This document shows, piece by piece, positions 27,394-53,265 of a DNA stretch of 64,000 bases. The position numbers and the translations under genes are program-made. The notes under the pieces were generated by a model. The model saw nothing but the letters and a program-made list of their open reading frames with translations, made no database searches and was not told the origin of the DNA. Position 1 is the first letter of the stretch, and each line of letters starts with the position of its first letter. Origin of the DNA: an uncultured delta proteobacterium. Its GTDB lineage: Bacteria > Myxococcota_A > Polyangia > Polyangiales > B10-G4. The stretch is taken from the NCBI GenBank assembly GCA_963727445.1, contig CAVSGI010000002.1:96001-160000 (forward strand). Reading direction: 5' to 3'.

Positions 27394-27962
27394 CACGCCT
27401 TCATCGCGGCGACGCGGCTTTCCAAATGCGGCAGGATGCGGTCGATGTTCTTCACCTCGCGGTGAACCTCGTCCTCGTCCAGCTCCATGTCGAGCACCGC
27501 TTCCTGGACCGTGTCGTAGAGCCAGTTCGCGCCGTCCTCTTCGAGGCACTCGGGCGCCGAGTGACCCAGATGCGTCAGCTTGGGGCAGCCGTCCACCGCC
27601 TGGTCGAGGACGGTCACGAGCTCGTCGCCGAGAAACTCGCGCGTCGCCCGGAGCTGCTCGTCGAGGGGCTCGAAGAGCTCGGGCATCGCCTCGCGGTGTC
27701 GCGCCATCGCCTCGGCGTTGGTCTTCTCGACGCGCTCGAGCGAGAGGCGCAGGACCAACACGTCGTCGACGTGGGCGAGGATCCCGATCTGCCCCGGGAT
27801 GGCGTTGTGACCCGAGAGGACGTGGATCAACGCCCCCGCGAGCAGGACCCTCCCCTCCTCGGTGATCTCGGGATCCTCCACGATGCGGAGAACCGCCTTC
27901 ATGTCCTGGGGGAGCGAGAGAATCCCCTCGCTCATCACTTCACGGAACCGTGCCTCAGCCAT
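27393..27962 (-). CDS. DUF1232/YkvA-like protein
   Basis: AGALIHVLSGHNAIPGQIGILAHVDDVLVL resembles the DUF1232 motif. Confidence 0.6.
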   Translation of the reverse strand: MAEARFREVMSEGILSLPQDMKAVLRIVEDPEITEEGRVLLAGALIHVLSGHNAIPGQIGILAHVDDVLVLRLSLERVEKTNAEAMARHREAMPELFEPLDEQLRATREFLGDELVTVLDQAVDGCPKLTHLGHSAPECLEEDGANWLYDTVQEAVLDMELDEDEVHREVKNIDRILPHLESRVAAMKA

Positions 27963-27971
27963 CGTTTCTCG

Positions 27972-30029
<2,058 letters not shown>

Positions 30030-35646: not shown

Positions 35647-36510
35647 ATGAGATCGCTAGGGATCATCGGCGGAAGCGGGTTGTACGAGCTCGAGGGCCTC
35701 GAGGACGTGGAGGAGCACGCGGTCTCCACGACTTTCGGCGAGCCTTCGGACGTGGTGCTCAGTGGGCGGCTCGGAGACACCCGCCTGCTCTTCGTTCCAC
35801 GTCACGGACGGGGGCATCGCATCCCGCCTCATCGCATCAACTACCGGGCGAACATCCTCGCGCTGAAGAAGCTCGGCGCCGAGCAGATCGTCAGCGTCTC
35901 GGCGGTCGGCTCGATGAAGGACAACATCCATCCGGGCGACGTGGTGCTGCCGGATCAGTTCTTCGATCGGACGCGAATGCGGCCCAGCACCTTCTTCGAC
36001 GACGACGGCGTGGCCGCCCACGTCGCCCTGGCCGAGCCCATCGACGCCGCGCTGCAGCAGGCGCTCTATCGGGCGGCGGTCGACGCCGACGTGCGCACGC
36101 ACAAGGGCGGCACCTACATCTGCATCGACGGTCCGCAGTTCTCGACGCGCGCCGAGTCGAACATCTACCGGAGCTGGGGCGTCGACGTGATCGGCATGAC
36201 CAACCTGCCGGAGGCGCGCCTGGCCCGCGAGGCGGAGCTCCCCTACGCCACCGTCGCCCTCGTCACCGACTACGACTGCTGGCACGACGACCACGACGCG
36301 GTCACCGTCGAGCAGGTGGTGAGCATCCTCAAGACCAACGTGGTCAACGCGCGCCGCATCCTCACGAACGTCGCCGCGATGCTCCCCGATCCCTCGGAGA
36401 GCCCGGCGGTGAACGCGCTGGAGCACGCGATCATGACCCGCCCCGACCTCATCACCGAAGCCGCCCGAGAGCGCCTGGACCTCTTGATCGGCAAGTACCT
36501 GGACAAGTAA
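35647..36510 (+). CDS. mtnP: S-methyl-5'-thioadenosine phosphorylase
   Basis: GIIGGSG, RHGRGH, NYRANI, GPQFSTRAES, IGMT, VTDYDCW. Confidence 0.95.
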   Translation: MRSLGIIGGSGLYELEGLEDVEEHAVSTTFGEPSDVVLSGRLGDTRLLFVPRHGRGHRIPPHRINYRANILALKKLGAEQIVSVSAVGSMKDNIHPGDVVLPDQFFDRTRMRPSTFFDDDGVAAHVALAEPIDAALQQALYRAAVDADVRTHKGGTYICIDGPQFSTRAESNIYRSWGVDVIGMTNLPEARLAREAELPYATVALVTDYDCWHDDHDAVTVEQVVSILKTNVVNARRILTNVAAMLPDPSESPAVNALEHAIMTRPDLITEAARERLDLLIGKYLDK

Positions 36511-36523
36511 GGACCCCGCCAGA

Positions 36524-37501
36524 ATGCACTCCAGTCACCCCATGCTCGTCGTCGGATCGGTCGCCTTCGATACGATCCACAACAACTCCGGAACGCACGC
36601 CAAGATCCTCGGCGGCTCGGCCACCTTCGCCTCGATCGCCGGCGCGGTCTTCTCCCCCGTCCAGCTCGTGGGCATCGTCGGGCGCGACTTCCCCCAGGCC
36701 ACCATCGATCAGCTCACCAAGAAGGGCATCGACATGGCGGGCCTCGAGCGGAGCGACGGCCTCACCTTCCACTGGGAGGGCAAGTACAGCGAGGACCTCA
36801 CCTCGCGCGAGAGCCTCTGCACCGAGCTCAACGCCTTCGCCGAGTTCCACCCGAAGATCCCCGAGGCCTTCCGCGACACGCCCTACGTGATGCTCGGCAA
36901 CATCGCCCCCGCGCTGCAGCTCGAGGTGCTCGACCAGGTTCAGAATCCCCGCCTCGTCGTCGCCGACACCATGAATTTCTGGATCGAGGGCCAGCGGGAC
37001 GACCTGATGAAGGTGCTGGCCCGCGTCGACGTCCTCGTCATCAACGAGGAAGAAGCGCGGCAGCTCTCCGGCAAGCACCACATCATGCAGGTCTCGAAGG
37101 CGCTCCTCTCGATGGGCCCGCGCATCGTGATCGTCAAGCAGGGCGAGTACGGCGCGCTGCTCTTCCACGACGGCGAGATCTTCGCGGCGCCGGCCTATCC
37201 GATCGACACCGTGGCGGACCCGACCGGCGCCGGCGACACCTTCGCGGGCGCGCTCCTCGGCTACGTGGCGCACCACGACAACATCCGCCACGACACGCTC
37301 CGGCGCGCGGTGATCTACGGCTCGGCCCTGGCCAGCTTCTGCGTCGAAGGGACCGGAACCGAGCGGCTGCTCTCGGTGACCCGCGACGACGCGGACCAGC
37401 GTTTCCGGGCGTTCCGCAAGCTCGCGCACTTCTCCTCGGAGGACGAGGTGAGCGAAGTCGAACGAGAAGATCGCGGCCCCGAGGCGCGTCGGGCAAACTG
37501 A
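36524..37501 (+). CDS. PfkB/ribokinase family kinase
   Basis: GGSATF, NEEEAR, DPTGAGDTFAG. Confidence 0.92.
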   Translation: MHSSHPMLVVGSVAFDTIHNNSGTHAKILGGSATFASIAGAVFSPVQLVGIVGRDFPQATIDQLTKKGIDMAGLERSDGLTFHWEGKYSEDLTSRESLCTELNAFAEFHPKIPEAFRDTPYVMLGNIAPALQLEVLDQVQNPRLVVADTMNFWIEGQRDDLMKVLARVDVLVINEEEARQLSGKHHIMQVSKALLSMGPRIVIVKQGEYGALLFHDGEIFAAPAYPIDTVADPTGAGDTFAGALLGYVAHHDNIRHDTLRRAVIYGSALASFCVEGTGTERLLSVTRDDADQRFRAFRKLAHFSSEDEVSEVEREDRGPEARRAN

Positions 37502-37532
37502 AGACCTACGCCGGCGGCGTAGCTGGAGGATC

Positions 37533-38543
37533 GTGATGAAGAAGCTTTGCTTGATGCCACTCGTGTTGACCCTTTTCATGGGCTGCGGTGACGACAGCTC
37601 GCCGCCGAGCGACGGCGGGACCGACGCGACGGTGGACAGCGCGCCGCCCATGGGCACCTGCCCGGTCCCCGACGAGCAGATGGGACCCTGCTGCTACTAC
37701 GCGTCCAACGCCGAGAGCCTCGACCATCCGGCGCTGCGAGTCGCGGGCGTACAGATCACGACGCCGCCCTCCCTCGCCACGATCATCGTGACCACGCTGC
37801 TCGTCGACTCCCTCGACCGCGAGCTCTTCAACTGGCTCATCGACACCGAGATCAGCGGCACCGACGCCAACATCACCACCGGGTACGGCATCAAGAACGC
37901 CGACGGCACCTTCTCCTTCACCATGGGCACCGCCCCCGGGCCGGGCGACGCCAACCGCTGGGACCCGATCTCCATCTCCGGGTCGATCGCGGGAGAGGTC
38001 GTGAGCGCCCCGGTGGTGAGCGAGACCCTCACGGTGCCCGTGCTCGATCAGGACGGGATGAACGTCACCCTCGAGCTGCCGCTCCGGAACATGACCATCG
38101 AGATGGCGACCCTCTCCGAGGATCGCAGCTGCATCGGGCAGCGCCTCCCCGGCAACCGTTGGACCTCGACCGATGGCCTGCTCACCGCCTTCATCACGGT
38201 CGAGGACGCCGACGCGGGCATCCTCGACGTGCCGGACGCGATGATCCACCAGTCGCTCTGCACCTTCATCGCCAACATGCCGGCCACCGCGGGTGACTGC
38301 ACGATGCCGACGGACTGCCCGATGGGCTACACGTGCAACACCGACTCCAAGTGCGCGCGGCCGGACAACTGCCTCGACACCCCGCAGAACGACGACACCT
38401 GGTCCGCCAAGCCCGACGCCCTCTGCGACACCGCGGGCTGCACCCAGGACCCCGGCGACGGCAGCGTCTGCGACCCCGCGACCACCTGCAACGCCTGGTT
38501 CATCAGCGCCGGATTTGCCGCCCAGGGCGTCACGATCAACTGA
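37533..38543 (+). CDS. Hypothetical Cys-containing lipoprotein
   Basis: GGAGG RBS; lipobox FMGC. Confidence 0.75.
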   Translation: MMKKLCLMPLVLTLFMGCGDDSSPPSDGGTDATVDSAPPMGTCPVPDEQMGPCCYYASNAESLDHPALRVAGVQITTPPSLATIIVTTLLVDSLDRELFNWLIDTEISGTDANITTGYGIKNADGTFSFTMGTAPGPGDANRWDPISISGSIAGEVVSAPVVSETLTVPVLDQDGMNVTLELPLRNMTIEMATLSEDRSCIGQRLPGNRWTSTDGLLTAFITVEDADAGILDVPDAMIHQSLCTFIANMPATAGDCTMPTDCPMGYTCNTDSKCARPDNCLDTPQNDDTWSAKPDALCDTAGCTQDPGDGSVCDPATTCNAWFISAGFAAQGVTIN

Positions 38544-38706: not shown

Positions 38707-41700
38707 ATGCGCTTCGTTAGGCAGAATCTCTGGTCTTTTCTTCTTCCTCTCCTCGTCTTCGTCGTTCTGGCGTGTGGAGGGGGCAGCTGCGGGGGCTGCG
38801 CCGGCTGCGGGGTCGCGCCGATCCCGGGCGGCTATCCGATCGCCGATCGCGTCAGCAACTCGGCGCAGGTTCGCCTGACCGATGACGGGATCACGTTCAT
38901 CGAAGACAACTTTGATTCGATCGTGATGAATTTCCTGCCGGACGGCCTGGACTTCCCCGTCCCCCGCAGCACGGTGTCGGGTCCGCTGGGAACGAGCGCA
39001 ACCATCTGCGCGGACGACAACTGTATCGCGCACCTGGAGATTCAGAGCGTCGAGCTGACCCCGACAGCCCCGAACACCCTTCACGCGCACCTGCGCCTGA
39101 TCATGGACAGCCGCAACCTCTCCGGCGCGCGCGCTCGGTGGCGCATCGGTCTGCCCATCAGTGACTCCAACCTCGACGTCGACACGCGGCCGGGCTCGCG
39201 TATGTATGTCGGGTTCGCGGCCGATATCCGCTTCCTCGCAGAGACCGAAGCGGCCCGCGCGGGCTACACCTGGGTCAAGGTCGAGAACGCCGATCTCGTG
39301 TCCGGCGAGGGCATCGAAGACGCAGACCTCGATTTCTCCGGCGGCATCTTGTCGTGGGTCCTGAACGCGCTCAAGGGCGTCCTCATCGACCAGCTCGTCG
39401 CCCAGGTGACGGGCCTCTTGGACTCCGCCCTCGGCGACGCCCTCTGCACGCAGCAGGGCGAGTATGGGTGTCCCACCGGCACGGTCGCGGCCGGACCGGA
39501 TCCGACGGACGTCTGCGAGTACACCGCCGGCGGCCGCTGCGTCCCGATACTCCTCGGCACCGACGGCCAGGGCGATCTCGGTGAGGCGTTCCTCGGAAGC
39601 ATCTCTCCCGGCACTCACGCCCCGGGCCAGTTCCTGCTCGCGTCGGGCGGCGACGGCGAGGCGGTCAACGGGGGCATGAGCCTCTTCATGTACGGCGGCT
39701 ATCGCTCCACCGACCTCACCTTCATGACCTCGCCCGCGCACAACCCGTGCGTACCCGTGGTCGATCCGCCGCCCCTTCCGACCATCCCGCGGGTCGACAC
39801 CTTCCGGGGCAACACCATCCCCGGCGGCGGCAGCGCCCACGTGGGCATCGGCCTGTCGGAGTCCTTCCTGAACCACGCGGGCTACGGGATGTTCGACTCG
39901 GGCCTTCTGTGCATCGGCGCGGGGACGCGGCTGAGCCAGCAGCTCTCGACGGGGCTGCTCTCGGCGCTGATCACCTCGCTCCGCGGCGTGACCTTCCCGG
40001 AGACCAACGCTCCGGTGGCGATCGCGCTCCGGCCCCAGACCCCGCCGACCTTCGAGGTGGGCGCGGGCGACGGCACCGAGCCGCTCCTCACCGTCGCGCT
40101 CGATGGTGTGCAGGTCGACTTCTACGTCTGGTCCACCGAGCGATACATCCGCTTCATGACCTACGCGGCGGATCTCTCCATCCCGATCAACCTCACGGTC
40201 ACCGACGGCGAGATCGTGCCGGAGATCGTCGAGGTCGGCGCGTCCAACAGCGTCGTGACCAACTCGGAGCTGTTGAGCGAAGACCCGATGCTCCTCGCCT
40301 CGCTGATCGAGACGGTCATCAGCGAGTTCGCGTCGATGGCCACCGGCGGCCTGAGCCCCTTCGCGCTGCCGGACCTGATGGGCCTGGCGCTCGAGGTGCC
40401 CGACGGCGGCGTGACCGGCGTCGACGACGCGCGGTGAGGAGTTCGTCGGCATCTTCGCCAATCTCGCGCTGGCGTCGGGCTCGGCCTACTCGGCCAGCGT
40501 CGACACCCGCGCCACCCTCGATCCCATCCAGATCGATCCCGACGTCCTCGACCTCGCCACCTTCGGCCAGGGCGAGCACCCCTGGGTGCGCGTCGTCGCG
40601 GACGCGGACGGCCCGAGCGGCGCCGGCTACGAGTACAGCTGGCGCGTCAACGGCAAGCCGTGGAGCCCCTGGACCACCGACCGCATCCTCACGATCCAGG
40701 ACCCGGCCTTCCTGCTCCAGGCACGTCACGAGCTCGAGGTGCGGGCGCGCATGGCGGGTCAGCCCCTCACGGTCGATCCGACGCCGGCGTGGTTCGAGGT
40801 GCTGGTGGACGTCCTTCCGCCCCTGGTCGAGGTGGACCGGAGCGGCCGTGGCGTGAGCATCACGGCCAGTGACGTCCTGACGGAGCGCGAGGACCTCGAG
40901 CTCCGCTACCGCATCGACGGCGAAGGCTGGACCGAGTGGCAGAAGCTGCCGGACGACGCCTTCGTCCCCCTCCCCTACGACGACGCGAGCATGGACGTCG
41001 AAGTGCGCGACGAGGCGGGCAACGTGGGCGGCGCGAGCGCGGCGCTCATCCGCGGCCTTCCCAACCCGGACGCCGCCGCGGGCTGTGGCTGCTCGACCTT
41101 CGACGAGCGCACCTCGCCCTTCTCCGGCCTCGCCTTCCTCATGGCCTTCGCCGCGTTCCTCCTGCGCCGGAGGTCTCAAAGACGACCCTCGAAGCGGCTC
41201 GGCAAGAAGGCGAAGTCGGCCGCCAAGTGGCTCTCGATCCTGATCCTCCTGTCCATCGTCGGCTGTGATTGCGGGGGCGGCGACAACCCCGACGGCGGCA
41301 CGGACGGCATGATGGGCTGCTCCTCGTGCGTCGCAGCGGTCCCCCCGGCCACCGCCGGCGGCATCTGCTGCGAAGCCACGAACATGTGCATCTCCTACGA
41401 CCTGATCGAGCTCTGCGATCCGGGCTTTCAGTGCTCCAGCGGCGACCAGGTGGCGGTGGACGAGTCCTGCAACCTCACCTGCAACGACTGCGTGCGCTCG
41501 CCCGCCCTCAACCCCGGCCTTCTGGCGACACACCTCGACATGCACGTGAACGACGACGGCAGCGCGGTGCTCTCGGGTTACAGCCCGGGCGACGCGCCGG
41601 CCCGCGTCTACGGCGACCTGGTCATCGGCACCGCGCCGGCCGGGCCCGGCGACATGGTGCAGTGGGAGATCGTCGACGGCGCCCCCGACATGCCCATCAC

Positions 41701-42826
41701 CAACGACCCCGACGGCTATCGCGGCGGTGTGTCCGCGCCCGGCCCCGACGTCGGCCGCTGGACCAGCATCGCCGAAGCGGGCGGCACCTATTACGTGAGC
41801 TACTACGATCGCGACAACGGTGACCTCAAGCTCGCCTACGGCACCCCCGGCACCTGGACCGTCATCGTGGTGGACGACACAGGCGACAGCGGGCGCTACT
41901 CGTCGATCGTGATGACGCCGGACGGCGCCCCCGCCATCGCGTACCTGCAGATCACGCCCGGGGACGGCGGCGCCATCGAGAGCCGCGTGAAGGTCGCCGT
42001 CGCGGACAACGGCAGCCCCACGGGCCCGCCCGACTTCTTGAGCACCGAGATCGCCGGTGGTCCCATGGACTGTCGCCCGGCGTTCTGCGACGACACCACG
42101 ACCTGCACCGAGGGCGGGCTCTGCGTCACCGACAGCGGGGACTGCGGCGGCAGCTGCGCGATGGATCAGATCTGCGTCTCCGGGACCTGTGAGACCGCGC
42201 TACCCGACAACTACGTCGAGGACATGCCGCCGGCTCTGGGGATGTACAACTCGCTGGTCGCGACCGACTCCGGCCTCGCCCTCGTCTACTACGACCGGTC
42301 GAACGGCAACCTGTGGGGCGCCGCCTACGACGGCAGCGCCTGGGCTGCGCCCTTCCTGATCGACGGCTACGGCGCGGGCACCCTCGGCGTGGGCGACTCG
42401 GGCCTGGCGGCGAGCCTCTTCGTCGACGCGGCCGGCGTGTGGCACGTGAGCTACGTGGACGGCGCCGAGGAGAACCTCCGCTACGCCCGCATCGAGGGCG
42501 GCATGGTCACCGCCGAGACCGTCGACAACGGCGCGACCGACGGCACCGATCCCAATCCGGACGGCCGGCACATCGTGGGCGACGACAGCTCCATCGTGGT
42601 GACCGAGGGCGGCGAGATCCGCATCGCCTATCAGGACGCCACCTCACGCCGCGCCATGCTGGCCCGCCGGCCGGCGAGCGGAGGCGAGTGGACGATCTCG
42701 ATCTTCGACGAGACCGACAGCACCGGTTTCTGGATCGAGCAGAGTCTGCTCGGAACGACCAGCGTGATCGCGACCTACTACCGCAGCGCATCCGACGGCG
42801 GCACGCGCCTCTTCAACGTGGACTGA
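38707..42826 (+). CDS. Large surface lipoprotein: BPI/LBP-like region, Ig-like domains, internal MYXO-CTERM, second lipoprotein module; frameshift near 40428
   Basis: Lipobox VLAC; AQVRLTDDGITFI and IGLSESFLNHAGY; GCGC..TM..RRR at 41081-41175; second lipobox IVGC at 41264; the two frames join as VDD(GG)EEF. Confidence 0.75.
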
Positions 42827-49823: not shown

Positions 49824-52800
49824 ATGTTCACGAAGATCCTTCACCGGCCAGCTCTCGCCCTAGTCCTCTCGATCATCGTCGTATTCCTCGGTGGCCTGGG
49901 GATCACGACCCTTCCGATCGCCCAGTTCCCCAGCGTCGCGCCGCCGACCGTGTACGTGTCCATCGCGTATCCGGGCGCCAGCGCCAAGGTCCTGGTCAAC
50001 TCCGTCCTGATCCCGCTCGAGCAGTCGATCAACGGCGTCCAGAACATGCGCTACATGGTCTCCTCTGCCACGAGCGCAGGTGAGGCGACGATCATCATCT
50101 ACTTCGAGCCGGGCACGGACCCGAGCATCAACGTCGTCAACGTGCAGAACCGCGTGAACATCATGCGGAGCCGCTTGCCTCCACTGGTGGTGCGTGAAGG
50201 CATCCTGGTCAGCAAGGTCGTGCCGAGCATGTTGATGTACTTGAACCTGTACAGCACGGACCCGAACACCGACCAGAAGGACTTATTCAACTACGCCAAC
50301 GTCTACGTCATGCCCGTGATCAAACGTATCCAGGGCATGGGGATCCCGCGAAATCTCGGCAACCGAAATTTCGCGATGCGCATCTGGTTGAATCCCGACC
50401 GCATGCGGGCCTACGACGTCTCCGTCGACGACGTCATGGAGGCCGTGGCGGAACAGAGCATCATCGGCTCGCCCGGCCGCCTCGGTCAGGCCACGGGCAT
50501 GACCTCGCAGTCGAAGGAGTACGTGCTCACCTACATCGGCCGCTACAACGAGCCGGAGCAGTACGCGAACATCATCCTGAAGGCCAAGCCGAACGGGGAG
50601 ATCCTGCGCCTCCGAGACGTCTGCGTGCCTCCCCCGAGGCCCGAGGGCGCGGGCGAGATGCACGAGCAGCACGAGGGCGTCGAGCTCGGCTCGGAGTTCT
50701 TCGACCTCTACTCCGACGTCAACGGCTATCCCGCGGCCTCCATGGTCCTCAAGCAGGCGCCCGGTTCCAACGCGGCCGAGATCATCGACCAGGTCAAGGA
50801 GACGCTCGAGGAGCTGAAGCAGTCGTTCCCCCCGGGGATGGACTACGAGATCGCCTACGACGTCTCCCGCTTCGTCGACGCCTCCATCGAGCAGGTGCTG
50901 CACACCCTGCTCGAGGCGTTCATCCTGGTGTCGCTCGTCGTCTACATGTTCCTGGGCGACCTGCGCTCCACGCTCATCCCGACGCTCGCGGTGCCGGTGT
51001 CCCTCATCGGCAGCTTCTTCATCCTGCAGTTGATGGGCTTCTCCATCAACCTGATCACCCTCTTCGCGATGGTCCTGGCCATCGGCGTCGTCGTCGACGA
51101 CGCGATCGTCGTCGTCGAAGCCGTCCACGCCAAGATGGCGGAGACGCACTTATCTCCCTATCGCGCGACCATGGAGGTCCTTCACGAGATCAGCGGCGCG
51201 ATCATCGCGATCACGCTGGTGATGACCTCGGTGTTCGTCCCCATCACCTTCGTCCCCGGCCCGGTCGGCGTCTTCTACCGCCAGTTCGGCGTCACCATGG
51301 CCTCGACGATCATCCTCTCCGGCATCGTCGCCCTCACGCTCACGCCGGTGCTCTGCGCGATGATCCTCAAGCCGCACAGCGCGAGCCACGGGCACGAAGA
51401 GAAGAAGAGCATTCGCGACCGGCTCACGGGGCTGGGCGCCAAGACCCTCGTCATCTACGCCCTCGTGGGGCTGCCGGTCCTGGCCGGACTCGTCTACATC
51501 GCCTACGAGCTCTGGGGGCCCATCGGCTTCTTGCTGATCCTCGTGCCCTTCGTGCAGGGGCCCTTCAGCCGCGGCGTCGACAAGGTCACCAACTGGTACG
51601 CGGGCGGGATCCTGCAGGCCCATCGTCACCCGCCGGCTCCTGACCATCGGTGTGATCGCGGCTTTCGCGGTCGGCATCGTCGCCACGAACTCGATCCTGC
51701 CGAGCGGTTTCATCCCCGGCGAGGACCAGGGCATCATCTACGCCGTTCTACAGACGCCTCCCGGCTCGACCCTCGAGTACACGAACGCCAAGTCTCAGGA
51801 GCTCGAGCGGATCGCCAAGGAGATCGACGGCGTCACCAGCGTCACCTCGGTGGCGGGATACGAGGTTCTGACCGAGGGGCGCGGCTCGAACGCGGGCACC
51901 GCCATCATCAACCTGGAAGACTGGTCCGAGCGCGACGTCACTGCGAAGGAGATCATCGAGGAGCTCGAAGAGCGAACGCGAGAGATGACCAACATCAAGC
52001 TCGAGTTCTTCGAACCGCCGGCGATCCCCGGGTTCGGCGCGGCGGGCGGTCTCTCCTTGCGCGTGCTCGACCAGACCCAGTCGAGCACGGCCGACTACCA
52101 GCGGCTCGGAGAGATCACCGAGGAGTTCATGGCCGAGCTGCGCGAGCGCGAAGAGGTGGGCAGCCTGTTCACCTTCTACGCCGCCGACTACCCGCAGTAC
52201 GAGCTGATCATCAACAACGATGTGGCCATGCAGAAGGGTGTGTCGATCGAGCGGGCCCTGAACAATCTCAACATCCTCATCGGCAGCACGTACGAGCAGG
52301 GCTTCATCCGCTTCAACAAGTTCTACAAGGTCTACGTCCAGGCGTGGCCTGAGTTCCGGCGAATGCCCGAGGACCTCGACAACCTGTTCATCCCCAACGA
52401 GGCCGGGGAGATGGTGCCCTACTCGTCCTTCATGGAGATCCACAAGACGCAGGGCCTGAACGAGATCACCCGCTACAATCTCTACCCCTCTGCCGCCATC
52501 CAGCTCGTTCCGGCTGCCGGCTTCTCGACCGGTCAGGCCATCGATGCGGTGCGCGAGGTTGCCGAGGCGACGCTGCCTCGCGGATACGCGCTCGGCTGGG
52601 AGGGTCTGTCCTGGGACGAGTCGAGGAAGGGCAACGCCGCCCTCTACATCTTCCTGGTCGTCGTCGTGTTCGTGTACCTGGTGCTCGTCGCCCAGTACGA
52701 GAGCTTCCTGATCCCGCTGGCCGTCGTCCTGTCGCTGCCGGTCGGGATCTTCGGCTCGTTCTTCTTCCTACAAATGGTGGGATTGGCCAACGACGTCTGG

Positions 52801-53265
52801 GCCCAGTTAGGTCTGATCATGTTGGTCGGCCTCTTGGGGAAGAACGCGATCCTGATCGTGGAATTCGCGGTCCAGCGGCGAAACGAAGGCGCCTCCCTCA
52901 AGGACGCGGCCATCGAGGGCGGCAGACTCCGCTTCCGGCCCATCCAGATGACCTCCTTCGCCTTCGTCGCCGGTCTGATCCCGCTCGTCATCGCCCACGG
53001 CGCAGGCGCCATCGGCAACCGCACCATCGGCGTCACCGGCGTCGGCGGCATGCTCCTCGGCACCGTGATCGGCGTCATCGCCATCCCCGGCCTCTACTAC
53101 CTCTTCGCTCGCATCTCCGACGGGCGCGAGCTGCTGCGCGACGAAACGGAAGTGCCGCTCAGCGAGCAACCCGAAGAGCATTCCGAGATCCACGCGGTCG
53201 AGGACGGCGAACACGCGTCGCTTCACGAGCCACCGCTGGATTCCGAGCCACCCGAAGACACGTAG
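49824..53265 (+). CDS. RND efflux permease (HAE1-like), copy 1; frameshift at ~51614
   Basis: LPIAQFPSVAPP, VVDDAIVVVE, KNAILIVEF, RFRPIQMTS; one extra G relative to copy 2 (ATCCTGCAGG vs ATCCTCAGG). Confidence 0.93.

Follow-up and report, generated by a model that had tools for sequence, protein, structure and literature searches.

MYXO-CTERM is normally a C-terminal sorting signal, and lipoprotein signals are normally N-terminal. The Bradyrhizobium cytochrome b/c1 precursor FbcH reportedly carries an internal signal peptide, at which one cut by signal peptidase yields two membrane proteins. FbcH is like the gene studied here in having an internal signal within a precursor that is cut (by prediction in our case), but it is said to belong to a respiratory complex and to have neither a sorting tag nor lipidation. 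In Myxococcus xanthus, MXAN_5598 has a MYXO-CTERM in its interior and is probably two genes fused into one, with an N-terminal part that is proposed to be processed and anchored (Guo, Haft and Wall, mBio 2025, PMC11980579). Our gene likewise has an internal MYXO-CTERM in a fusion. However, MXAN_5598 has as its partner a beta-barrel of the outer membrane that includes an OmpA domain, whereas the partner here is a lipoprotein; the account of MXAN_5598 in that paper mentions no second export or lipoprotein signal and presents the cut as a proposal only (PMC11980579). Also unlike MXAN_5598, the family described here has an N-terminal lipobox on its first half, occurs in several classes and includes natural splits. 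In Haloferax volcanii, HVO_0405 is a two-gene fusion with a central sorting tag, for which cleavage by the sorting enzyme has been demonstrated experimentally (PMC7157517). That is an archaeosortase system with a strain-specific fusion, and the description of HVO_0405 there does not include a second lipoprotein signal.

The N-terminal half of our gene (protein A) has described counterparts of its own. BPI, LBP and CETP contain two tandem TULIP domains, and DUF4403 is a bacterial BPI-like lipoprotein, according to the relevant sections of PMC6791001. Unlike BPI/LBP/CETP (PF01273 and PF02886) and DUF4403, protein A has a stalk and bears another anchor signal at its C-terminus; it is also longer and Cys-rich. 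A Pfam scan of 37 family members returned no DUF4403 match, and the text of PMC6791001 does not contain “myxo”. TipA of Bdellovibrio bacteriovorus is described as a BPI-like double TULIP that holds lipids and binds membranes (bioRxiv 10.1101/2025.09.09.675085). As described there, TipA and TipB resemble proteins A and B in that a predatory bacterium encodes a double TULIP beside a partner protein; the partner of TipA is a beta-sandwich. The text of that paper contains neither “myxo” nor “propeller”, and no TipA chain was among the matches of our 37-member N-half profile. A literature search, with subscription journals, bioRxiv supplements and Table S1 of PMC11980579 outside its scope, turned up no publication that describes this family or a lipoprotein signal placed after a tag. 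The principle of the joint is a variant of known sorting. What distinguishes the family is its age, its spread, its fission controls, and a lipid tube with anchor signals at both ends.

The gene lies in a stretch of 64,000 nucleotides (the window) from an uncultured delta proteobacterium. Its features, in window coordinates, are as follows.

37533 to 38543, plus strand: upstream lipoprotein of unassigned family, a frequent neighbour of the gene

38707 to 38775, plus strand: first lipoprotein signal peptide, from ATG 38707 to Cys23 at 38773-38775, lipobox VLA-C (sequence)

38845 to 40460, plus strand: core of protein A, a BPI/LBP-like double TULIP (tubular lipid-binding) domain, the last strand of which lies beyond the frame break (profile)

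40428 to 40437, plus strand: frame break through a single additional base at about 40430, with TGA 40435-40437 after it (GC3, orthologue and run X4 contig)

40480 to 41060, plus strand: stalk, probably consisting of one Ig-like domain or two, with approximate boundaries, suggested by conserved beta-rich blocks

41078 to 41173, plus strand: internal MYXO-CTERM tag, comprising GCGC, a spacer, a hydrophobic helix and RRR (sequence and HMM scan)

41165 to 41227, plus strand: basic linker, predicted to be cytoplasmic, serving as the tail of the tag and the n-region of the second signal (sequence)

41228 to 41266, plus strand: second lipoprotein signal, with a hydrophobic helix at 41228-41263, lipobox IVG-C and its Cys at 41264-41266 (sequence)

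41264 to 42826, plus strand: protein B, which has a Cys-rich module at its N-terminus, before a predicted beta-propeller of seven blades that contains a Cys-rich insert (AlphaFold2)

The stop-free frame 40586-42826 holds the tag, the basic linker, the second helix and the lipobox in that order, with some 520 residues to follow, exactly as the initial annotation had read it. Counted from the Cys at 41264, the product is 520 aa long (519 residues beyond the Cys). Within the tag, GCGC begins at 41081 and the invariant Cys occupies 41090-41092; Cys motif, hydrophobic helix and Arg cluster together form the MYXO-CTERM signature. An HMM check proposed in the annotation came out partly in favour of the tag. 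It passes TIGR03382 (GC_trans_RRR; 17.5 bits against a cut-off of 15.85), and a 52-aa piece reaches 20.1 bits with TIGR03901, but the scores of 18.2 for the whole open reading frame and 18.9 in the genome scan fall below the cut-off of 20 for that model. The tag is followed by 550 residues here and lies at the C-terminus in the split relatives described below. The linker (RRRSQ...AAK) has 21 aa, 11 of which are Lys or Arg and none Asp or Glu. By pattern tests, half B has the makeup of a lipoprotein: a basic n-region, a hydrophobic helix and a lipobox ending in Gly/Ala-Cys. The signal is internal in our gene and N-terminal in eight split loci and six stand-alone copies. The annotation had further claimed that no ATG, GTG or TTG lies between the RRR and the second hydrophobic stretch, and this is correct: the sole such codon from the first helix to the second lipobox Cys is ATG 41141, inside the first helix.

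The VLAC lipobox at the start of the gene is indeed present at 38707-38775, but the annotation had assigned it to the same protein as the junction without noticing that it lies in another frame, which stops at TGA 40435-40437. Codon usage (GC3) changes frame near 40430. The orthologue from the same genus is a single frame of 1400 aa with one base fewer at this site. A near-identical contig from run X4 (3 differences in 227 bases) also lacks one base at 40430; at a depth of 4.1 it is weak evidence alone. Single-base frame breaks also occur in two other genes of the window, showing that the assembly carries single-base indels: a minus-strand gene at 27600-30029 with Asp-rich repeats, the product of which is labelled OmpA-like from its motifs, has two breaks, and a plus-strand RND-like transporter gene at 49824-53265 has one near 51600. 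The break at about 40430 is thus probably an assembly error, and only if it is one does the VLAC lipobox belong to the gene. On this assumption, we read the intact gene as 38707-42826, encoding about 1,370 aa. The N-terminal signal peptide usual for MYXO-CTERM proteins is then of the lipoprotein type; it lies across the frame break here and is intact in the orthologue. A lipobox-like N-terminus is found in 111 of 120 full-length homologues and, with a looser pattern, in 142 of 150 cluster representatives. Overall, the annotation was right about the junction, and overlooked both the frameshift and the identities of the two halves, a BPI/LBP-like double TULIP and a beta-propeller.

These breaks, one of them in the same gene, would also fit a fusion created by the assembly itself through a lost stop or an indel. 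Reads across the linker had been suggested as a check, and a contig from run X1, which may be the source sample, spans 40947-41244 with one difference and no gap. Furthermore, 29 of the 30 loci returned from related genomes, complete genomes among them, are in frame across the joint (the other is split), and 173 full-length homologues longer than 1,300 aa were found. The in-frame loci and full-length proteins refute a family-wide assembly artefact, and an artefact in our gene is extremely improbable.

We find that the gene family is old and widespread in myxobacteria, as judged from its distribution. Matches occur in 39 of 61 related genomes. The N-half profile finds members in several classes of the phylum (82 of 251 genomes) and none in several well-sampled families among those 251, while the C-half is found in 166 of 301 genomes of the order, a tally that takes in one unpublished genome (G334), which no other result here depends on. 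Homologues come from sources that include Sandaracinaceae, Polyangiaceae and Sandaracinus amylolyticus, in which the protein is annotated “hypothetical protein” (WP_053232857.1). Judging by these names, the window probably comes from the Polyangiales. At E ≤1e-30, 701 clusters (50%-identity representatives) match the N-half. Among the best 150 of these representatives, 117 have half B, with the tag, helix and lipobox recognized by pattern in 106 and by eye in 10, and with Asn before the Cys in one. The remainder comprises 16 that end at the tag and 17 that are truncated, frameshifted or unclassified. The annotation had asked whether the fusion is conserved or divided in other Myxococcota; it is conserved in frame in the 29 loci above and split into two genes in some relatives.

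We aligned the best 120 of the 173 full-length homologues with our protein. All 121 aligned proteins have both the tag Cys and the second lipobox Cys; they were picked as long homologues (and so are fused by selection) and include kin that are not independent. The layout of the junction is therefore not due to chance. Arg occupies the first two basic positions of the tag in 116 and 119 of the 121 proteins, respectively. Immediately ahead of the second Cys, 117 proteins have Gly and 4 have Ala; other C-half cysteines are preceded by Gly or Ala in a background of 24%. By contrast, the linker sequence is unconserved, with 16 to 64 aa between the basic cluster and the second Cys, and the helices conserve hydrophobicity only. 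In distant family members, both signals share one short Arg cluster. This pattern of conservation indicates that both junction signals are under selection.

A product that is never cut would sit in the inner membrane by its two-helix hairpin and expose two large parts to the periplasm. It would need neither the tag Cys nor a Gly/Ala-Cys ending the second helix, and the motifs would have to be relics or lipidation sites without cleavage. The N-terminal position usual for lipoprotein signals is in keeping with such a protein, as is the fused state being common and probably ancestral, which suggests that the covalent link is beneficial. The invariance of these residues well above background, together with repeated clean fission at the joint, which shows that the link is dispensable, makes an uncut protein rather improbable.

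A related alternative is a single cut. Either LspA would free B and leave A with a hairpin anchor, or myxosortase would free A while the helices hold B in the inner membrane. The borderline score of the tag is consistent with this, and A is already lipid-anchored at its N-terminus by its predicted first signal. Asp follows the second Cys in 61 of the 121 aligned proteins; Asp at position +2 is an inner-membrane retention signal in Escherichia coli, although the rules in M. xanthus differ, according to the relevant part of PMC3222651. On the other hand, the two cysteines are equally invariant, and the split genes retain both signals intact, so we consider a single cut unlikely.

Natural splits of the gene were found at eight loci in eight genomes (G033, G263, G366, G339, G351, G336, G383 and G387). 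The last six are among 20 loci picked for their short open frames, the other 14 of which comprise six stand-alone B genes, four fused genes, three contig ends and one unclear case. Each split falls precisely where the basic tail meets the second helix, and the two genes overlap in a TGATG or GTGA. Half A stops a few residues past the Arg cluster, half B has its own start codon, and the second lipobox Cys comes after a signal peptide that begins with Met. In addition, in 32 of 59 shorter homologues examined, the chain itself starts with Met or Val and a lipoprotein signal that runs up to this Cys. In a quick maximum-likelihood tree of 65 C-halves, which left out five loci and in which one locus (L076) is labelled fused without a verified joint, three separate changes to the split state are each nested among fused genes. 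The gene thus appears to have split in at least three lineages, and one genus contains both states. Two kinds of stand-alone gene were also observed. A paralogue of A that ends at its MYXO-CTERM (L036, G044:C1:7586121-7588733) coexists with the fused gene in one genome. One genus (loci L067-L072, from genomes G421, G384, G435 and G471) carries two or more stand-alone B genes that form one clade; no A gene was present beside these within the 7-kb stretches taken.

Independent initiation would be another source of a separate B, with translation starting at ATG 41141 or at a non-standard codon and the fusion as minor read-through. ATG 41141 is in frame, and some ATG, GTG or TTG lies in the linker window of 26 of 48 fused loci. 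However, only 9 of the 48 have an ATG there, and the positions are unconserved. A start with a ribosome-binding-like motif 18-24 codons ahead of the Cys is found in 7 of 8 split genes but in 1 of 48 fused genes (three fused rows were unparsed and one was parsed to an earlier Cys). Moreover, a start at 41141 would leave half a helix ahead of the signal, the two helices share one short Arg cluster in many homologues, and internal starts do not account for the missing stop after A across classes. Internal initiation as the source of B is therefore very unlikely. From the splits, the tree and the contrast in start codons, it follows that the fused state looks ancestral, that hidden internal starts in fused genes are unlikely, and that, as far as gene structures can tell, the second helix acts as a lipoprotein signal whenever it heads a chain.

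Protein A is a BPI/LBP-like double TULIP, by homology that extends over both halves in order. This assignment rests on the following evidence. A profile of 37 diverse N-halves matches human BPI (1bp1) with E 5.3e-8 in two collinear stretches, in the N-half (i-E 1.6e-4) and, weakly, in the C-half (i-E 3.5); the same profile matches LBP with E 0.94. PF01273 matches 3 of the 37 members (best 7e-6) and PF02886 matches 1, while single sequences, including that of the window, gave no Pfam family match. Another protein of the same genome, which passes the PF02886 cut-off, gives a profile match to the C-terminal tube (89.7%, E 1.9e-6). Finally, an Atlas lead for half A also names PF02886 (0.88). The second BPI-like protein of the genome is a predicted lipoprotein of 638 aa with Ig-like repeats (G000:C10:630266-632182, plus strand; L087, 187-2103). 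For the stalk of A, a weak Pfam Big_13 match was obtained in one homologue only (E 0.027). The stalk is missing in one genome (G006) and shorter in other homologues, and is thus not essential to the layout. Protein A probably binds or moves lipids, as judged from this homology.

The AlphaFold2 model of protein B has a pLDDT of 95.2 and a pTM of 0.91, and seven blades were counted by hand from the strand list. No Pfam family matches B at cut-off. Foldseek ranks propeller lectins (PHL/PLL, E 4e-11, about 10% identity) highest, along with sialidase-like propellers. TM-scores to the target for the propeller matches are 0.6-0.7, consistent with a beta-propeller fold. We name the predicted fold, and not the function, by these nearest structures, and do not place B in the PHL/PLL or BNR sialidase families. 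B probably binds glycan or serves as the partner of A.

The genome encodes the enzymes that would process such a precursor. MrtC myxosortase is encoded at G000:C14:459381 (NF040594, 245.3 bits against a cut-off of 195), in a search that scanned 7 of the 12 PF02517 matches, and both LspA (two matches) and Lgt are present. Elsewhere in the genome, a plus-strand MYXO-CTERM match lies less than 200 bases from a minus-strand PF02517 protease match (G000:C15:71172-71733). In M. xanthus, myxosortase cuts TraA at its tag and needs the tag cysteines, and lipidation there is proposed, as set out in the TraA part of PMC11980579.

We propose that Sec would export A behind the first signal, that the tag helix would stop transfer and leave the basic linker inside, and that the second helix would restart export, this time of B. 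Cys23 and the second lipobox Cys would be acylated by Lgt and serve as the cleavage sites of LspA. At the tag Cys, an acylase would add the modification and MrtC would make the cut. The two junction cuts would discard a hairpin of about 57 residues, so that both ends of A, and the N-terminus of B, would be anchored.

The membrane hairpin and polyprotein put forward by the initial annotation are well supported by comparison, through the invariant cysteines, the few usable internal starts, the splits at the joint and the three encoded enzymes, with cleavage itself a prediction. The two-component system at fixed 1:1 stoichiometry that the annotation added is a conjecture: stand-alone copies of each half exist, and the two products could go to different membranes. 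Since some relatives carry the halves as separate, overlapping genes, our chain is probably processed to two proteins, each with a lipid anchor. Such splits show that either half can function without being joined to the other, and not that fused products are cut. Weighing these observations, we think it very probable that at least one junction cut occurs. That a single precursor is cut on both sides of the junction hairpin, giving two separately lipid-anchored proteins, is the reading we favor, with somewhat less assurance. By analogy, the tag points to the surface via type II secretion. The layout, conservation, splits, enzymes and folds are results of the analysis, whereas the topology, every cut, the location and the function are predictions from them.

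The tag-plus-signal joint is also a reusable device, because the genome contains two further internal tags. Among its 73 MYXO-CTERM matches, 69 end within 25 residues of the C-terminus, one within 28, and three are internal. In the first of the further cases (G000:C8:80506-85596, plus strand, tag at 83080), a signal of the lipoprotein type (…LSNGG-C) comes after the internal MYXO-CTERM, and the chain continues for another 806 residues. This joint has Cys-rich repeats to either side, and the end of the gene looks frameshifted. In the second (G000:C4:235437-237959, minus strand, tag at 237078-237164), the tag directly precedes a signal-like helix that is not of the lipoprotein type, and the 547 residues after it end in a second GCGC-helix-RRR tag. 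This gene is possibly a precursor of two tagged proteins.

In the window, a phosphorylase-family gene, a PfkB kinase gene and the upstream lipoprotein gene precede our gene (35647-38543, plus strand), an order that recurs in many loci of the order. A homologue of the lipoprotein adjoins the gene in 9 of 16 loci and a PfkB-family kinase gene is present in 11 of 16; the lipoprotein homologue was not found in 20 narrower loci.

The products may move lipids at the cell envelope, if homology is a guide. A bolder proposal, by analogy, is an ancient polyprotein with three lipid anchors, cut by two different maturation pathways. Its BPI/CETP-like tube, held at both ends, and its glycan-reading propeller would together take up lipid from the membranes of prey or neighbours, or carry it from one side of the envelope to the other, a role similar to that put forward for Bdellovibrio TipA. 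We offer this role tentatively, as a possibility with the odds against it.

The BPI-like lipid tubes described here form an extensive family that lacks annotation (701 clusters at E ≤1e-30) in predatory bacteria, and they could bear on how these bacteria take up lipid. Its fused and split alleles are natural controls, and the cultured Sandaracinus amylolyticus has the fused gene. The large size shift expected makes the precursor a good reporter for the myxosortase cut site and for the lipid-adding enzyme. If it is cut as predicted, Lgt and LspA would be able to process a signal that lies 800 residues into a chain, and the family would represent a conserved bacterial polyprotein in which two different lipid-anchoring pathways mature one hairpin.
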